A DNA stretch of 64,000 bases. Origin: Thermodesulfobium acidiphilum (GTDB taxonomy: Bacteria; Thermodesulfobiota; Thermodesulfobiia; Thermodesulfobiales; Thermodesulfobiaceae). Below the pieces are notes generated by a model. That model was not told the DNA's origin. It did not search any database and worked only from the letters and a program-made list of their open reading frames with translations. Position 1 is the stretch's first letter, and every line of letters starts with the position of its first letter. A program made the translations under genes and the position numbers. The stretch is from assembly GCF_003057965.1 (NCBI RefSeq), contig NZ_CP020921.1:856916-920915 (forward strand). Reading direction: 5' to 3'. Of the stretch, positions 4,592 through 10,184 are shown piece by piece.

Positions 4592-5305
4592 TTGGATGGT
4601 GATAAATTGGAGTCAAAAGTAATAGTTGCACTTGACTTAGAAGATTTAAGAGAAATAGAAGAAACAGTTAGAGAACTTTCAATATTAACGAAGTGGTTTA
4701 AAATAGGGTATCAAATGATTTCTTCCATTGGTATAAAAGAATCTGTAAGAATTGTAAAATCATTTAACTGTAATGTGTTTCTAGATATGAAATTGTATGA
4801 TATTCCTAATACAGTGGCTAGGGCCATAAGAAATCTCACGAAACTAGACATTGATATGCTTACGATACACATAAGTGGTGGCTCAAAGATGATAAAAGAA
4901 GCTTTAAAAAGTATTGATGATGGAAGTGATGTCAAGCTTTTAGGGGTAACGCTTTTAACTAGTTTTTCTAAAGAAGAAGCAAAAAAAATTTATAATCAGG
5001 ATGAAACTATTGATGTTGTTAAGAAATTTGCAAGAATTGGTTATGATATGGGATTGAGGGGTTTTGTTTGTAGTCCTCATGAGCTAAAAGCTTTAAAAAG
5101 TGAATTTTCAGACTGTATTTTTGTTGTGCCAGGAATAAGGCCATCGTGGAGTCTTAAAAATGATCAAGAAAGATTTGCAACCCCTTATGAAGCAAAATTG
5201 AACGGTGCAACGTATATTGTGGTTGGCAGACCTATAATAAAACCAAATAATAATTTAAAACCATCATATGCACTAAAATCTATCATTGAGGAGTTTAGTA
5301 AATGA
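4592..5305 (+). CDS. pyrF: Orotidine-5'-phosphate decarboxylase
   Basis: IVALD, FLDMKLYDIPNTV, PGIRP, DQ.R, VVGRPI; likely start TTG 4607. Confidence 0.96.
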   Translation: MDGDKLESKVIVALDLEDLREIEETVRELSILTKWFKIGYQMISSIGIKESVRIVKSFNCNVFLDMKLYDIPNTVARAIRNLTKLDIDMLTIHISGGSKMIKEALKSIDDGSDVKLLGVTLLTSFSKEEAKKIYNQDETIDVVKKFARIGYDMGLRGFVCSPHELKALKSEFSDCIFVVPGIRPSWSLKNDQERFATPYEAKLNGATYIVVGRPIIKPNNNLKPSYALKSIIEEFSK

Positions 5306-5919
5306 GTGAAAACAATGAAATATTGACTATTTTAAGAGAACATAATGCTATTGTTTATGGACATTTTTTGTATACATCGGGTAAACATGGTGAAGTTTAT
5401 ATTAATAAAGATGCTATATATATAAAACCAAAAGTGGTCTCAGAACTTTGTTTGAAGATGTCAATTATGGTAAGGGATATAGATTTTGAAGTTGTTTGCG
5501 CACCCACAATTGGTGGAGTAATACTCTCACAGTGGATTGCTTATCACAGTTCAAATTTAAAAAACACAGAAATATTATCTGTATTTTCTGAAGAAGTAAA
5601 CGGAAAAAGGGTTTTGAAAAGAGGATATGATAAGGTTGTTGAAAACAAAAAAATTTTAGTAGTTGATGATATTCTCACTACAGGTTCATCGATAAAAAAA
5701 GTAATTAGTGCAGTAAAGGATTGTAAAGGGATTATTCAAGGTAGTGTCTGTTTGGTAAATAGGGGTAAAGTAAATGCTAGGGACATAGACTCACCATTTT
5801 TGTCAAGCCTTTTAAGTATTGATTTTAAATCATACGAACCTGAAGAATGTCCTCTATGTAAAAGGAATATTCCTATTAATACCGATCTTGGTAAGGGTAA
5901 GAAATTGCAAAATTTATGA
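5302..5919 (+). CDS. pyrE: Orotate phosphoribosyltransferase
   Basis: GHF..TSGKH, VVDDILTTGSS PRPP loop, CPLC tail; ATGA overlap with pyrF. Confidence 0.93.
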   Translation: MSENNEILTILREHNAIVYGHFLYTSGKHGEVYINKDAIYIKPKVVSELCLKMSIMVRDIDFEVVCAPTIGGVILSQWIAYHSSNLKNTEILSVFSEEVNGKRVLKRGYDKVVENKKILVVDDILTTGSSIKKVISAVKDCKGIIQGSVCLVNRGKVNARDIDSPFLSSLLSIDFKSYEPEECPLCKRNIPINTDLGKGKKLQNL

Positions 5920-7166
5920 TATCAAATGAAAAGTGGAGATTTAAATTTATATCAAATGTTTTTAATGTTGAAGTTTTTCTGATAAACTTTATTAATGAGA
6001 ATAGTTTTTATATTGAGGCAATTATAAATAATAAGGAAACAACTACAGTATCAAAAAAATTTTTAGATTTTGTAAAAAAAAATCGTTATAAAGATTATAA
6101 GTTGCCATTTTTATATAAGGAAAAGGGCTACACATATCTCGAAGAATATTACTATCTGGATTACAGTACGTATATTATGTTTAAATTTAACACGAAAAAT
6201 ATACCAAATTTTAGAGAATTTAATGAGTTTAAAGATACTTTGATTCTTCAATCTCTTAATTCAAACCCCTGCAAAAAGCTGTTTGCAAGTGATTTTTCGT
6301 CTGAAGATGGAATTGTTGTTTTAGATGAGAACGCTAATGAACTGTATGCCTCTTCTAATGCAAAACTAATTTGTACAAAGGCTACAAATGTTATTGATTT
6401 TTATAATAAGGGTATATGGAGGGAATTTCTTTCAAAAAGTAAATTTATATGCCCAAAATTTTTTATAAAAACGCTTAGAAATGAAAATTATATGGCAAAT
6501 TTAGAATTTCACCCAATTTTTAAGGAAAATAAATTGAAATACTTTATTATAGTCGTAAAGGATTTATCAAAAAAATTATTATTAGAAGTTGAAAAACAAA
6601 AACAGTTGAATACAATGAAGGAAATTAATCATATGATTAAAAACAATCTTCAAATAATTAAAAGCATAATGAATATAAAATCACGGAGATTATCTGATAA
6701 AGAACTTATTGACGATATTTCAATAAAACTTGAATGTCTTGCAAGGGTACACGAACAATTAATCAAACTTTCTGAAGAATTATCTCTTAAAACGTTGTTA
6801 GAAAGTTTATTTAAAGTTCTAATTAATTCTGGTAGGGAAAAGTTGTACGTTTATGGTGATCTTATAGGTGAATATCAGAAAATGTTGCTATTAATACTTG
6901 CTCTCATCGAATTAATGCAAAATTCGCTAAAATATGCATTTTTAACTGAAGAAAAGTCCAAAATATTTATCTCAATAGTTAAAAGCTTTGAAAAAATTAG
7001 AATTACATATCAAGATTTTGGTGAGTTTAAATCTGAAGAATTCATTTCTAAAGGATATGGCAGCGATCTTATAAGGGCACTCTTAATTAATGGCCTGAAC
7101 GCCTCCTTTGTGCGAGTGCCTGTAAAGAAGGGGACTTTATTTGAAATTATCTTAGAAAATTTTTGA
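5916..7166 (+). CDS. Cytoplasmic sensor histidine kinase, HisKA_2 (PdtaS/EutW-like)
   Basis: H-box EINHMIKNNLQ, N-box ELMQNSLKYAF, G-box KGYG. Confidence 0.8.
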   Translation: MISNEKWRFKFISNVFNVEVFLINFINENSFYIEAIINNKETTTVSKKFLDFVKKNRYKDYKLPFLYKEKGYTYLEEYYYLDYSTYIMFKFNTKNIPNFREFNEFKDTLILQSLNSNPCKKLFASDFSSEDGIVVLDENANELYASSNAKLICTKATNVIDFYNKGIWREFLSKSKFICPKFFIKTLRNENYMANLEFHPIFKENKLKYFIIVVKDLSKKLLLEVEKQKQLNTMKEINHMIKNNLQIIKSIMNIKSRRLSDKELIDDISIKLECLARVHEQLIKLSEELSLKTLLESLFKVLINSGREKLYVYGDLIGEYQKMLLLILALIELMQNSLKYAFLTEEKSKIFISIVKSFEKIRITYQDFGEFKSEEFISKGYGSDLIRALLINGLNASFVRVPVKKGTLFEIILENF

Positions 7167-7209
7167 TAATTTTTGATATTATTTTTAATAAAAGTTTTGG
7201 AGGTAAAGT

Positions 7210-7839
7210 ATGAAGAGTGATATAAAGTTGTCAGCTAAGAATAAAGATCAGATAAGAATTTTTATTGCCGATGATGAGTTTCTGATTAGATTGGATATGA
7301 AGGAGGAATTAGATAGAGAGGGTTTTAAAGTGATTGGGGAGGCTAAAGACGGTGTTGAGGCACTTTCTGAGATAATTAGATTAAAGCCTGATGTAAGTAT
7401 TATAGATATCATGATGCCACATATGGACGGTTTAAAGTTGGCTAAGAGGTTAAAAGATGAAGATTTAGGTGCTGTTGTTTTTTTGACTGCTTATAATAAC
7501 AAAGATTTTATAGATAGAGCATCTAAAATTGGTGCTTTTTCTTATTTGTTGAAACCATATAGAATTAGTGAATTAAAGAGCGCTATTCTTCTTGCCTTTG
7601 AGAGATATAAAGATAATAAAATATTAAGAGAAAAAAATATAGAGCTCGAAGAATCAATTAAAACAAAGAATTCATTATATCGAGCAAAATTGTTCATAAT
7701 AGAACAAACTCGCTTGAGTGAAAATGAGATACATAAAAGAATGCAAGAATATTCAATGAAAAATAGAATCTCTTTAAGAGAACTTTCTGATCTGATTTTA
7801 AAAACTAAGAATATACCTGAAGGAATCAAAAATCCTTAA
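7210..7839 (+). CDS. ANTAR-domain response regulator (PdtaR/EutV-like)
   Basis: REC domain (ADDE, DIMMP, LTAY, KP) plus ANTAR-like RAK...LSENE..KRMQEYSMKNRISL. Confidence 0.88.
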   Translation: MKSDIKLSAKNKDQIRIFIADDEFLIRLDMKEELDREGFKVIGEAKDGVEALSEIIRLKPDVSIIDIMMPHMDGLKLAKRLKDEDLGAVVFLTAYNNKDFIDRASKIGAFSYLLKPYRISELKSAILLAFERYKDNKILREKNIELEESIKTKNSLYRAKLFIIEQTRLSENEIHKRMQEYSMKNRISLRELSDLILKTKNIPEGIKNP

Positions 7840-8875
7840 ATATTTTTGGGTTTACTTCATAACCTATCTCGTAGAGATCTGATCCGATCTCTTCCTGATT
7901 AGGATGATATCGTAAATTTGAGAATTTGCTTATTAGTTTTATAGTAATTAGATTTGATAACCAGATATAAATAATAGTAAAAATAAAAATAAAAATTATT
8001 CCAAAGCCTTTTATTAAACTTAAAGTAATTATTAGAAAGATCAGGCTTATTGCAACTGGTACTACAAGAAAAAGCGGATCGTCAAACAAAAAATTTACTT
8101 CAATTTTGTTTTGTATGTATATATTTATAAATGATACTATAAACGTTAAAACTAAAATAACATAGGATGGGGTAATTAGATTACTGGAAACAGTAAAAAT
8201 CATAAATGTAAAAAGTGATGAAATTAAAATTAAGGGGTCTACTTTTTTAGCAATAAAGATGGATGAAAGCGAACTAGCTATTATTGATAAAGAAAAATTT
8301 GAGAAAACAAACTGTAACCAACCTGGATCATATCCCTGGAAGAAGCTAATTGTAGAAAATATGAAGGTTAATGAGCCAAAATAAATAAAGAGTATATTGT
8401 TTCCTGGTATTGCCATAGATCTTCCATCCTTTGTAAATCTACCTATGCGCGGCCCTATAAGTTGACTGACAGAAAAGCTGGATATGGATGAGTAAAGTGC
8501 TACCAGAAAAATAAAAGCAAGTTTAAGTGAATTATAAAAGTTGAATTGCTTTGAAAGTAGTAGAAATAAGAAAGAATAAAGTGGGTAAATCAATAAAACT
8601 TGAAATGTTGAGTATATTAAAATAATTTTTATTGAAGTTTTCTCAATAAATTGAGTTATGATTATTGATAATGCAAATAATGAAAATACAAAGTATATAA
8701 TGTTAATTTGTAAGTTTAGTGTGTAAAAAAGAACTATAGGTAAGAAGTTTAGTGCGCTCAAAATAATAAAAGTAGTAATTAGAGTTAATACGTTCTTTGA
8801 TCTAATAGAACCTACTGCTAAAATTTGAAATCCCAGAAAGGCTATTAAAAATGATATGTAATTAAAATAATTCAT
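7826..8875 (-). CDS. Highly degenerate ammonium transporter (Amt) family membrane protein
   Basis: Amt loop motifs GF...GSIRSKN, IYP, GPRIGRF, IPGNN, DDP, LR....EEIGSD..E.G. Confidence 0.75.
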   Translation of the reverse strand: MNYFNYISFLIAFLGFQILAVGSIRSKNVLTLITTFIILSALNFLPIVLFYTLNLQINIIYFVFSLFALSIIITQFIEKTSIKIILIYSTFQVLLIYPLYSFLFLLLSKQFNFYNSLKLAFIFLVALYSSISSFSVSQLIGPRIGRFTKDGRSMAIPGNNILFIYFGSLTFIFSTISFFQGYDPGWLQFVFSNFSLSIIASSLSSIFIAKKVDPLILISSLFTFMIFTVSSNLITPSYVILVLTFIVSFINIYIQNKIEVNFLFDDPLFLVVPVAISLIFLIITLSLIKGFGIIFIFIFTIIYIWLSNLITIKLISKFSNLRYHPNQEEIGSDLYEIGYEVNPKIFKDF

Positions 8876-8978
8876 GATAATATTTTATATCAATTTTAAA
8901 AAAATATCCTGGTTTGTTTACCTCTTAATGTTATATTTAAAAGAAAATTGTTAAAACTGAGTTATAATATTTCCTAAA

Positions 8979-9953: not shown

Positions 9954-10184
9954 ATGTTTAATCTTAACTTTCAAACAATATTAATTGAAACAGTAGTATA
10001 TATTGTAATAAATATTTGTATAAAATTTATTTTGATCAGTGATGATTTAACAAAATTTAGAAGAACATTAATGCTCGGTTACCTTGTCTTTGCCAGTTTT
10101 TTTGTCTCTTTAAAAATCTTTTTGACTGTAAGTGCTCTTGTAATAATTTTAGCTTTCGGTATTAGAAAGTTTTTTGATTTTTAA
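9954..10184 (+). CDS. Small hypothetical membrane protein
   Basis: 76 aa with 2-3 hydrophobic segments. Confidence 0.55.
   Translation: MFNLNFQTILIETVVYIVINICIKFILISDDLTKFRRTLMLGYLVFASFFVSLKIFLTVSALVIILAFGIRKFFDF

Follow-up and report, generated by a model that had tools for sequence, protein, structure and literature searches.

The window analysed here is a 64,000-nt stretch of the Thermodesulfobium acidiphilum genome (contig NZ_CP020921.1), and it holds a gene for an Amt-like protein whose only histidine lies in the C-terminal tail. The locus raises the question of what an Amt homologue does when the residues for ammonium transport have been lost, and whether such a gene is under selection at all. 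On the evidence assembled below, it is somewhat probable that the protein is a selectively maintained, non-conducting Amt pseudo-transporter that acts via its cytoplasmic face.

Gene, family and fold

The features on which the analysis rests are as follows (coordinates within the window; E. coli AmtB numbering where AmtB is named).

7826..8875, minus strand: Amt-like coding sequence, an intact open reading frame of 349 amino acids with 11 transmembrane (TM) helices and a cytoplasmic C-tail
8876..8899, minus strand: upstream box AAAATTGnTATArAATATTrTy, abutting the ATG and kept in all four genus genomes (alignment)
8792..8803, minus strand: RSKN, cytoplasmic loop 1, residues 25–28; R25 corresponds to AmtB R37; invariant in every ortholog covering this stretch
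8627..8644, minus strand: EKTSIK, cytoplasmic loop 2; E78 corresponds to AmtB E121 and is invariant in the 28-row alignment A2
8486..8515, minus strand: TM5 segment FIFLVALYSS, which replaces DFAGG..VH (G163/G164 to F/I, H168 to A126)
8396..8455, minus strand: GPRIGRF-T-KDGRSMAIPGNN, cytoplasmic loop 3; R143 corresponds to AmtB R185; G141 and R143 are invariant in A2
8075..8086, minus strand: FDDP, cytoplasmic loop 5, residues 264–267; D265/D266/P267 correspond to AmtB D309/D310/P311
7856..7915, minus strand: C-terminal region LRYHPNQEEIGSDLYEIGYE, residues 321–340, which fits the Amt C-tail pattern LR..E.E..G.D..E.G and holds H324
7210..7839, plus strand: response regulator (RR) with ANTAR output, convergent with the Amt-like gene, the 3' ends overlapping by 14 bp (linkage only)
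5916..7166, plus strand: soluble HisKA_2/HWE histidine kinase (HK), overlapping pyrE upstream (linkage only)

The Amt-like protein is ~55–60 residues shorter than E. coli AmtB and has very short periplasmic loops. Bulky Ile, Leu and Phe account for 44.5% of its residues (Phe alone, 13%), while Gly and Ala have fallen to 6.6% together, compared to 18% in the genome's canonical Amt. A composition count found only five Arg, six Glu and seven Asp; Trp occurs only as W186 and W305, and Asp is absent from residues 1–149. The gene is AT-codon-rich (26.6% GC). Inspection of the sequence found a -10-like TAAAAT ending 7 nt 5' of the start codon and no Shine-Dalgarno before the ATG, such that the mRNA may be leaderless. 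A promoter scan returned 22 promoter-like sites against 17.6 expected and is thus uninformative; one terminator-like site falls within the RR gene. Known RNA families, searched at gathering scores across positions 1–24000 of the window, gave no matches, hence no sign of a known leader or riboswitch there.

Membership of the Amt family is faint at the level of sequence, with ~20% identity to any Amt. PF00909 matches weakly and over residues 59–180 only (31.3 bits, cut-off 23.2, E = 1.2e-7), and the TIGR00836 ‘amt’ subfamily model reaches 53.7 bits (E = 1.6e-14, residues 60–268), far under its curated cut-off of 343.3. A sequence search of solved structures returned no matches even at E 10, and the fold was recognised only via a model. 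The AF2 model (pLDDT 88, pTM 0.87), built from an alignment that included canonical Amts, has 11 TM helices and the C-tail, and the best 35 PDB matches in Foldseek are all Amt/Rh/Mep. With VIA-align, Ks-Amt5 (6eu6, Z = 33.4) and AmtB (2nuu_A, Z = 33.2; 2.9 Å over 335 residues) are effectively tied (rmsd 2.7–2.9 Å, 334–335 residues aligned), compared to unrelated folds that score from Z 11 down. The modelled tail aligns with that of GlnK-bound AmtB, where it is ordered (model 1–344 to chain 10–406). The nearest ESM Atlas clusters, taken as leads only, are short Amt-family proteins (355–399 aa, scores 0.90–0.93). Judged by these profile matches and by the predicted structure, the protein is a true Amt-fold homologue, as supposed in the initial annotation.

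Pore residues and the cytoplasmic face

In AmtB, D160 stabilises the periplasmic water wire, W148 and S219 form the S1 recruitment site, and W212 is an S2 residue. Comparison with E. coli AmtB used three separate alignments (A1, an L-INS-i alignment of 41 sequences, and a third), and equivalents of D160, H168 and H318 were absent in all of them. The D160 position is never D (K/H/Q/Q/Q across orthologs), the H168 position is A126 in two of the three alignments and F in the third, and the H318 position falls in a 5-residue gap or on V, never on H. W148, W212, S219 and D313 are replaced too, with F269 at D313, within the stretch 3' of FDDP that also lacks H318. The exact residue found at D160, W148, W212 and S219 shifts with the alignment, yet it is never AmtB's own. 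Because the protein has a single His (H324, in the tail), neither twin-His residue is possible under any alignment, which bears out the earlier claim that both were lost. Within the genus, A126 and the V at the twin-His positions are invariant. The position of W148 (L/S), that of S219 (Y/F/N/S/A) and that of D160 are variable among orthologs, leaving no conserved periplasmic site. With W148/S219, D160 and both pore His gone, the canonical cycle, in which NH4+ is deprotonated, the proton relayed and NH3 passed through, would be impossible.

The initial annotation had gone further and described all pore signatures as gone and only cytoplasmic-face motifs as kept. The first description holds for D160, H168, H318, W148, W212 and S219, replaced or deleted, though an ‘FG’ remnant of WFGWFGFN persists (IYFGS). 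The second may not, as the Phe-gate positions F107 and F215 align to the genus-invariant F64 and F178 in all three alignments, a match to be weighed against a Phe content of 13% and an identity of ~20%.

The same annotation termed the protein ‘pore-dead’. The loss of transport residues stands; a closed pore does not follow from it. Single twin-His-to-Ala mutants of AmtB are reported as unselective channels that conduct NH4+ and K+ (PMC7447429), and RhCE, which has no twin-His, retains matched deep cavities that nearly span the membrane, for which an auxiliary role in transport has been raised (bioRxiv 10.1101/2022.02.10.479914); His loss alone is thus no proof of closure. The protein could then be a conduit for another substrate: with Ala and Val at the His positions and D160 gone, a fully hydrophobic pore could pass a neutral gas (NH3, CO2, H2S) or act as an unselective leak, gated by the loops and C-tail. 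The invariance of F64, F178, A126 and V and the conserved gating network agree with such a role, while the variable positions of the periplasmic mouth, the fast evolution of the periplasmic loops (below) and neighbouring genes that point to no substrate do not. Further, the wide exchange of Gly and Ala for bulky residues, e.g., G163/G164 to F/I, suggests a filled core, and in AmtB neither D160A/E nor the double mutant H168A/H318A transports, with the addition of S219A to the latter abolishing even binding (PMC7447429). A conduit of this kind is rather unlikely.

The cytoplasmic face presents the opposite picture. AmtB residues R37, K39, N40, E121, G183, R185, D309, D310 and P311 and the C-tail motif are retained, and the loop motifs listed in the initial annotation (RSKN; GPRIGRF, residues 141–147; IPGNN, residues 156–160; DDP; the C-tail) are all in place. 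In canonical Amts, these loops and the C-terminal region couple the subunits and form the GlnK-docking surface. Given only five Arg, six Glu and seven Asp in the protein, the coincidence of R25, E78, R143 and D265/D266 with AmtB R37, E121, R185 and D309/D310 points to retention beyond chance. The vestibule is altered: of the AmtB residues in contact with GlnK (Y32, S263 and D313), Y32 and D313 line the cytoplasmic vestibule into which the GlnK T-loop fits, and they have become A20 and F269. A complex prediction of the protein (alignment A2) with the GlnK of its genome (alignment A3), run without controls, scored 0.02 and 0.01, where the mark is 0.32, and counts neither for nor against binding. 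R37, E121, R185 and D309 constitute a salt-bridge network in GlnK-bound AmtB, according to bioRxiv 10.64898/2026.10.12.758405.

Other homologues without the twin-His were found among 34 weak matches, four of which (P0010, P0015, P0030, P0039) lack both His where these would align; three of the four keep R37/E121/R185/D309. Since the query shares little beyond the cytoplasmic motifs, its matches are biased to keep them, and this offers no independent support. As a separate observation, a context search for the P0010-like family yielded nine loci from Tepidisphaerales/Phycisphaerales MAGs, with D160 and both His present in seven and not in L023 and L026; no conserved neighbourhood was evident in the raw ORF list for these loci.

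Selection and genomic neighbourhood

Homologue searches did not find the Amt-like gene outside of Thermodesulfobium. Within the genus it is intact in all four genomes, with a 1050-nt frame free of indels at dS up to ~1.2, and no ortholog is disrupted. All six pairwise comparisons indicate purifying selection (dN/dS = 0.077–0.125; dS is 0.7–1.3, near saturation, in most species pairs, and the least diverged pair, with dS = 0.18, gives 0.077), compared to 0.05–0.10 for the canonical Amt of G001–G003. Identity across the genus is 77–83% for the Amt-like protein, 78–88% for the RR and 69–87% for the HK, which puts conservation of the gene on a par with that of the genes beside it.

Constraint is unevenly distributed. 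With region classes taken from the predicted model and the N-out topology of AmtB carried over by homology, cytoplasmic residues are the slowest (dN/dS = 0.018–0.057; 59 of 67 invariant), followed by TM residues (dN/dS = 0.077–0.163; 172 of 251 invariant), and periplasmic residues are the fastest (dN/dS = 0.10–0.22; 17 of 31 invariant). Across these four genomes of one genus, constraint on the cytoplasmic face is 3–6 times stronger than on the helices or outer loops, whereas in the control, the canonical Amt of G001–G003, the three classes are about equal (dN/dS = 0.06–0.105). In the tree, the stem of the Amt-like clade is 3.33 substitutions/site and its crown branches are ~0.1, which fits a single burst of change followed by constraint. 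The clade joins other long branches at 82% SH-aLRT (under the 95% mark), a grouping that likely reflects long-branch pull.

Divergence on this scale (the 3.33 substitutions/site stem, ~20% identity to any Amt), the loss of all transport residues, the AT-codon-rich composition and the missing Shine-Dalgarno might suggest that an amt duplicate survives here as a relic, decaying or without function. Set beside an indel-free frame in four of four species, dN/dS as low as that of the canonical Amt, values of 0.02–0.06 in the cytoplasmic motifs and a promoter-like box conserved before the ATG in all four, a relic is barely credible. Decay of the gene is rejected (intact frame in 4/4; dN/dS ~0.1).

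The combination of lost transport residues and a nearly unchanged cytoplasmic face suggests a protein that probably signals or docks partners rather than transports. The protein retains all 11 helices and the C-tail on trimmed periplasmic loops, and selection preserves the R25-E78-R143-D265 salt-bridge network and the C-terminal region; under the pseudo-transporter reading, an Amt-type trimer would sit in the membrane and work via its cytoplasmic face. It could offer a cytoplasmic partner, e.g., a PII protein or the adjacent kinase, a platform for docking or regulation, or serve as a non-conducting regulatory subunit in trimers with a canonical Amt, in the way that RhCE/RhD share trimers with RhAG. 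Candidate partners are PII, canonical Amt subunits and the neighbouring kinase/ANTAR regulator; non-conduction and trimerisation are inferred, as is any partner. The cytoplasmic network might also be conserved merely to hold the fold together.

The genomic neighbourhood offers little on PII. No PII gene lies beside the Amt-like gene, whose neighbours are the ANTAR regulator, the kinase and an IMPase gene; one PII gene maps to genome position 133794, and the other, at 1626149, forms a glnK-amt pair with the canonical amt ~760 kb away. The link to PII-type nitrogen signalling proposed in the initial annotation accordingly found no support here. A canonical Amt co-occurs in all four genus genomes, which is necessary and not sufficient for an RhCE-style heterotrimer.

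What is conserved nearby is the two-component pair. The pyrF-pyrE-HK-RR cluster and the convergent Amt-like gene occur in four of four genus genomes (the convergent RR/Amt-like layout is repeated in G001 and G003 and, by tblastn, in all three other genomes), while the opposite flank differs (an IMPase gene in G000 and G001, not in G003). The Amt-like protein could, on this basis, be the membrane partner of the HK and RR, an unfused counterpart of the Amt-histidine-kinase receptor Ks-Amt5, through which an RNA-binding antiterminator would receive an ammonium or membrane signal. Neither a membrane segment nor a known sensor domain was detected in the kinase, whose first ~220 residues, like the Amt-like protein, are confined to the genus; the RR is the only ANTAR protein of the genome, and the sensor Ks-Amt5 is the best structural match, tied with AmtB. 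Synteny inside one genus is weak evidence, however, and the Amt-like gene is convergent with the pair, not co-transcribed; the HK-RR pair, with its 4-nt overlaps, looks to belong to the pyrFE operon. Nor is there a conserved periplasmic site for sensing ammonium. Known sensor Amts retain all pore motifs (PMC11152129), and the N1/N2 receptor signature given in that source (QX6EX15NX2DF/TX54-60TX2S/T) is found in neither the protein nor its orthologs, though the regular expression matches 4 of the 42 proteins tested. A dedicated role with this kinase and regulator is improbable.

Comparison with known systems

The Amt field regards the twin-His and D160 as near-universal; a Thermodesulfobium homologue has none of them and yet is constrained like a working transporter. 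The sole natural variation, PMC7447429 states, is a change of His to Glu in certain fungal Meps. In the literature searched, no account of a prokaryotic protein of this kind was found, and the accessible portion of a 2023 review of prokaryotic Amts is silent on it. Confined to one small genus, the case is a natural experiment in which the Amt face thought to serve subunit coupling and PII docking is isolated from the conducting part, and the protein could reveal what that face does alone.

With E. coli AmtB, the Amt-like protein shares the 11-TM fold, the ordered C-tail with its motif, the cytoplasmic residues and perhaps the aligned Phe-gate residues; it differs in being shorter, in the absence of D160/H168/H318/W148/W212/S219/D313, in its TIGR00836 score (53.7 vs 343.3) and in having no adjacent glnK. 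It is the natural equivalent of the AmtB mutants D160A, H168A/H318A and S219A/H168A/H318A all combined, which fold and trimerise without transport (PMC7447429). Those mutants are otherwise wild-type, whereas in the Amt-like protein, which selection maintains, divergence extends over all of the pore and the periplasmic half.

The receptors Ks-Amt5 and Sd-Amt1 likewise reuse the Amt scaffold beyond uptake, a reuse here only proposed; Ks-Amt5 (6eu6) gives the highest structural score, and a kinase gene is adjacent to the Amt-like gene. In these receptors, every conserved pore motif is present, the twin-His among them, along with an N1/N2 ammonium site and a fused transducer (PMC11152129), whereas the Amt-like protein lacks the twin-His, the N1/N2 signature and a fused module. 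It ends 28 residues past the LR of the C-tail, and a length-unrestricted search returned no longer relative below E 1e-10.

By analogy, the closest counterparts of the Amt-like protein are the mammalian non-transporting subunits RhCE/RhD. The RhCE pore is blocked by a hydrophobic constriction and the protein forms a trimer with two conducting RhAG, binding cytoplasmic ankyrin-1 via its N- and C-termini (bioRxiv 10.1101/2022.02.10.479914). RhCE/RhD belong to the eukaryotic Rh branch, whereas the model fits Amt (Z 33) better than Rh (Z 27–28; 7uzq_L, 27.3). In the Amt-like case, the pore would have been lost separately, in bacteria, with the heterotrimer and partner binding carried over only by analogy. 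Tentatively, then, the protein may be a bacterial counterpart of RhCE/RhD that dropped conduction and became either a cytoplasmic-face module sequestering PII or kinase proteins independent of ammonium flux, or a silent subunit controlling the canonical Amt in mixed trimers. If true, it would be a natural split of the signalling or scaffold function of Amt from transport.

Identity and predicted fold of the Amt-like protein

7826-8875 (minus strand): Amt-like coding sequence, an open frame of 349 codons

The product passed the Pfam threshold for PF00909 (Ammonium_transp) weakly (31.3 bits vs 23.2), in a single stretch spanning residues 59–180, and matched NCBIfam TIGR00836 ‘amt’ with an E-value of 1.6e-14, although its score of 53.7 bits fell short of the 343.3-bit cut-off. 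Judged by these two profiles, homology to Amt is statistically established without a structural model. A PDB sequence search returned zero matches, even at E 10, and a word-indexed protein search gave five proteins at E ≤0.001 among 8000 scored candidates, all from the Amt-like family (identities of 100, 83, 77, 74, and 72%), which includes T. narugense DSM 14796 ‘hypothetical protein Thena_0953’.

An AlphaFold2 model was built from a 28-row alignment (A2) of orthologs, weak search hits, and the canonical Amt of the same genome; it was confident (mean pLDDT 88.0, pTM 0.87) but not independent of homology because canonical Amts were among the input rows. Eleven main helices (residues 4–23, 26–52, 59–76, 82–110, 117–140, 158–178, 186–209, 214–229, 237–262, 271–289, and 292–318) were followed by short tail helices. 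All 35 Foldseek matches in the PDB at E ≤0.001 were Amt/Mep/Rh chains, the best being Ks-Amt5 (6eu6; E 3.1e-8) and GlnK-complexed AmtB (2ns1_A and 2nuu; TM 0.77). The Amt fold presupposed by the initial annotation is present in the model, with VIA-align Z scores of 33.4 (6eu6), 33.2 (2nuu_A), and 33.0 (2ns1_A) at an rmsd of 2.7–2.9 Å over 334–335 residues, while Rh proteins scored 27–28 and the next unrelated fold, the urea channels, scored 11. Owing to an ordered C-tail, GlnK-bound AmtB chains gave the longest alignments (model residues 1–344); those to apo AmtB stopped near residue 324. Profile and fold together place the protein in the Amt/Mep/Rh superfamily.

Residues lost from the pore and kept at the cytoplasmic face

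The E. coli AmtB sequence from the K-12 record was compared with the Amt-like protein in three alignments (MAFFT with 6 sequences, L-INS-i with 41 sequences, and a third set). The position of AmtB D160 holds Lys in this protein and His or Gln in its orthologs, and never Asp in any of the three. The first twin-His position (H168) aligns with A126 in two alignments and with Phe in the third, while the second (H318) falls inside a 5-residue gap or at Val. W148, W212, S219, and D313 are all substituted, and G163/G164 of the DFAGG motif are replaced by Phe and Ile. The protein contains one His (H324, in the tail), two Trp (186 and 305), and no Asp before residue 150, so these losses are independent of alignment details. 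The initial annotation had described the pore signatures and both twin-His as gone, and the loss of D160 and the His pair was borne out; a possible exception is the Phe gate (AmtB F107/F215), whose positions still align with F64 and F178, both invariant in the genus, in a protein that is 13% Phe and aligned at about 20% identity. Most of the ~55–60 missing residues are explained by the periplasmic loops, which span just 2–7 residues.

In AmtB, neither D160A nor D160E complements yeast. When both His are changed (H168A/H318A), NH4+ is still bound near the S1 recruitment site but not transported, and the S219A/H168A/H318A triple mutant carries zero current (PMC7447429). That paper gives a change from His to Glu, seen in some fungal Meps, as the sole natural twin-His variation. 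The Amt-like protein is a membrane protein of predicted Amt fold that lacks the residues needed for the canonical mechanism and, as far as its sequence indicates, fails each tested defining feature of a working ammonium transporter other than the Phe gate.

The cytoplasmic motifs and C-tail, claimed as retained in the initial annotation, do align with AmtB. In loop 1, R25-S-K-N corresponds to AmtB R37, K39, and N40; E78 corresponds to E121, G141-P-R143 to G183 and R185, and D265-D266-P267 to D309–D311, and the tail keeps LR....EE.G.D..E.G. With Arg, Glu, and Asp so scarce (5, 6, and 7 in the whole protein), matches at charged AmtB positions are far beyond chance. A preprint (10.64898/2026.10.12.758405) ties a D309-R185-E121-R37 salt-bridge network, present in the AmtB-GlnK state and broken in apo AmtB, to gating, and its four charged residues are exactly those kept here. 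According to a review (PMC10433425), the Amt C-terminal region may mediate inter-subunit cooperativity, and the Amt tail and the GlnK T-loop become ordered together in the complex.

Genomic setting, distribution, and selection

The genome (G000; 1.77 Mb, one contig) encodes a single canonical Amt (PF00909, 415 bits) with DFAGG..VH, WFGWFGFN, and DD...VFGIHG all intact, located immediately downstream of a PII gene; a second PII gene lies elsewhere. The other three Thermodesulfobium genomes (G001–G003) each carry a tandem pair of canonical amt genes. The G000 gene (468 aa; L001:1492-2898, G000:C1:1624706-1625872 region; compared with L017-L022) matches the first tandem gene (476-aa frame) at its N-terminus, while its body has 86–90% identity to the second (437-aa frame) and just 69–71% to the first; from these identities it looks like a recombination chimera collapsing the pair.

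The Amt-like gene lies away from this glnK-type locus and is convergent with the gene of an ANTAR response regulator (RR):

4592-7839 (plus strand): pyrF-pyrE-HK-RR, with 4-nt overlaps joining pyrF, pyrE, and the histidine kinase gene (HK), and RR 43 nt after HK
7826-7839 (opposite strands): 14-bp overlap of the 3' ends of the Amt-like and RR genes, the same in G001 and G003
8876-8899 (minus strand): conserved box AAAATTGnTATArAATATTrTy, abutting the Amt-like ATG in 4/4 genomes

A terminator scan found no terminator-like site between the RR and Amt-like genes, so their transcripts must overlap at the 3' ends. HK is a soluble HisKA_2/HWE kinase, for whose first ~220 residues a search of 41 genomes turned up relatives only within the genus, and RR is the sole ANTAR protein of the genome; together they appear to form a two-component antiterminator system embedded in the pyrimidine operon. 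The pyrF-pyrE-HK-RR/Amt-like block is present in all four genus genomes. On its far flank, G001 has the IMPase gene, G003 lacks it over the adjacent 1.5 kb, and in G002 the contig stops 240 nt upstream. The box is kept even where sequence further upstream diverges, a -10-like TAAAAT ends 7 nt ahead of the ATG, and no Shine-Dalgarno was found before it; from these features a leaderless mRNA is possible. No other nitrogen genes occur within window positions 1-22000, which hold Moco synthesis genes, an aldehyde:ferredoxin oxidoreductase, lactate-utilisation genes, an MFS transporter, an AMIN protein, and an SLT lysozyme-like protein, among others. Between the IMPase and SLT-domain genes sits a hydrophobic ORF of 76 aa that matches no Pfam family (9954-10184, plus strand). 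Outside the window, the genome encodes a member of the NifH family (PF00142, 292 bits; G000:C1:1001481-1002230).

Of 41 genomes searched (40 relatives plus that of the window), all four from Thermodesulfobium contain a stop-free, full-length ortholog of 349 codons (E ≤1e-160). Six of the remaining 37 yielded only weak and partial hits (22–32% identity; E 1.4e-10 to 4.4e-4) in frames of 415–532 aa which, from frame length and Amt motifs at the loci, are taken as ordinary Amts. An exhaustive, length-unrestricted phmmer search of 1.84 billion representatives gave 35 proteins at E ≤0.001 and no fused or longer form; the only one at ≤1e-10 was the genus's own cluster. With the genome search, this indicates a subfamily restricted to the genus in what was searched. 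A quick ML tree built from 40 Amt proteins gave this clade a stem of 3.33 substitutions/site and crown branches of ~0.1, and put it among other long branches with no firm position; the canonical Amts of the genus are not its sister group and join E. coli AmtB at 100% support. Two weak hits, P0015 and P0027, form their own long-branched clade in this tree; both are Amt-like, lack H318 and an aligned D160 (P0015 also H168), and carry an N-terminal extension of ~60–100 residues before the first helix, coiled-coil-like by eye.

The four coding sequences are each 1050 nt with zero indels, and dN/dS is 0.077–0.125 in all six pairs (Nei-Gojobori; dS 0.18–1.21). A decaying gene, which the initial annotation had allowed for, is contradicted by these values and the intact frames. 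With residues classed by predicted model topology in an N-out orientation borrowed from AmtB by homology, dN/dS was 0.018–0.057 for the cytoplasmic class (59/67 residues invariant), 0.077–0.163 for helices (172/251), and 0.10–0.22 for the periplasmic class (17/31). As a control, the same partition of the canonical 437-aa Amt of G001–G003 (two informative pairs; G000 pairs left out because its chimeric N-terminus inflates values) gave 0.067–0.076, 0.101–0.105, and 0.062–0.087, respectively (whole gene, 0.05–0.10), with no cytoplasmic bias. Purifying selection maintains the Amt-like protein and is strongest at the intracellular loops and C-tail. Between species it is conserved to the same degree as its neighbours (77–83% identity; RR, 78–88%; HK, 69–87%; pyrE, 78–93%).

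Candidate roles and comparison with known systems

We infer that the protein conducts no ammonium, which is supported by its core of bulky residues (I+L+F, 44.5%; G+A, 6.6% vs 18% in both the canonical Amt and an MFS transporter of the window). As a main alternative, it may be a conduit for another solute: AmtB single His mutants still conduct, as unselective NH4+/K+ channels (PMC7447429), and RhCE retains cavities (preprint, bioRxiv 10.1101/2022.02.10.479914). The interpretation in the initial annotation, a non-transporting scaffold, decoy, or heterotrimer subunit for PII-type signalling or a channel for another substrate, is partly supported by the fold, the residue losses, and the cytoplasmic selection.

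As a non-transporting subunit, the protein would form Amt-type trimers and work via its cytoplasmic face, the kept elements being, in true Amts, the subunit coupling apparatus and the surface ordered upon GlnK binding. It could be (a) a platform that docks or sequesters PII independently of flux, (b) a regulatory subunit, itself silent, inside mixed trimers with the canonical Amt, like RhCE in RhAG2-RhCE, or (c) a membrane partner for the adjacent soluble HK. The first two are not ranked against each other; the third is weaker, since the two genes are convergent and the protein lacks the published ammonium-receptor signature. Counting against (a), the positions of AmtB Y32 and D313, which line the cytoplasmic vestibule, are changed. 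GlnK R47A still binds AmtB normally (PMC4274968), which indicates that deep T-loop insertion is unnecessary for binding.

Similar degenerations may recur, judging from at least four further weak hits without both His (P0010, P0015, P0030, and P0039; L-INS-i, 41 sequences), three of which keep the R/E/R/D network, in a sample biased by the query. The P0010-like Tepidisphaerales family mostly keeps pore residues (7/9 loci). These nine loci, on Tepidisphaerales/Phycisphaerales MAG contigs (L023-L031), encode a divergent short Amt subfamily (374–418 aa) with a common extra C-terminal motif, AYPDFQQNTIKS[FY]HLRE; D160 and the twin-His are found in 7/9, with W148 and F107 replaced, and the His pair is lost in 2/9.

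Full-text literature searches returned no account of a prokaryotic Amt homologue without the twin-His and D160; two papers naming both Thermodesulfobium and ammonium transporters deal, going by their titles, with other organisms. PMC11152129 describes sensor Amts as having every pore motif and a fused transducer, and the Amt-like protein has neither. It is apparently a non-conducting, cytoplasmic-face-only Amt of one genus, with moderate-to-good value as a case in which nature has separated Amt signalling from transport. The closest functional likeness is to RhCE/RhD: in the RhAG2-RhCE trimer, the twin-His-less RhCE subunit holds the cytoplasmic partner contacts (bioRxiv 10.1101/2022.02.10.479914), and the Amt-like protein is a distinct case, bacterial and belonging to the Amt branch.
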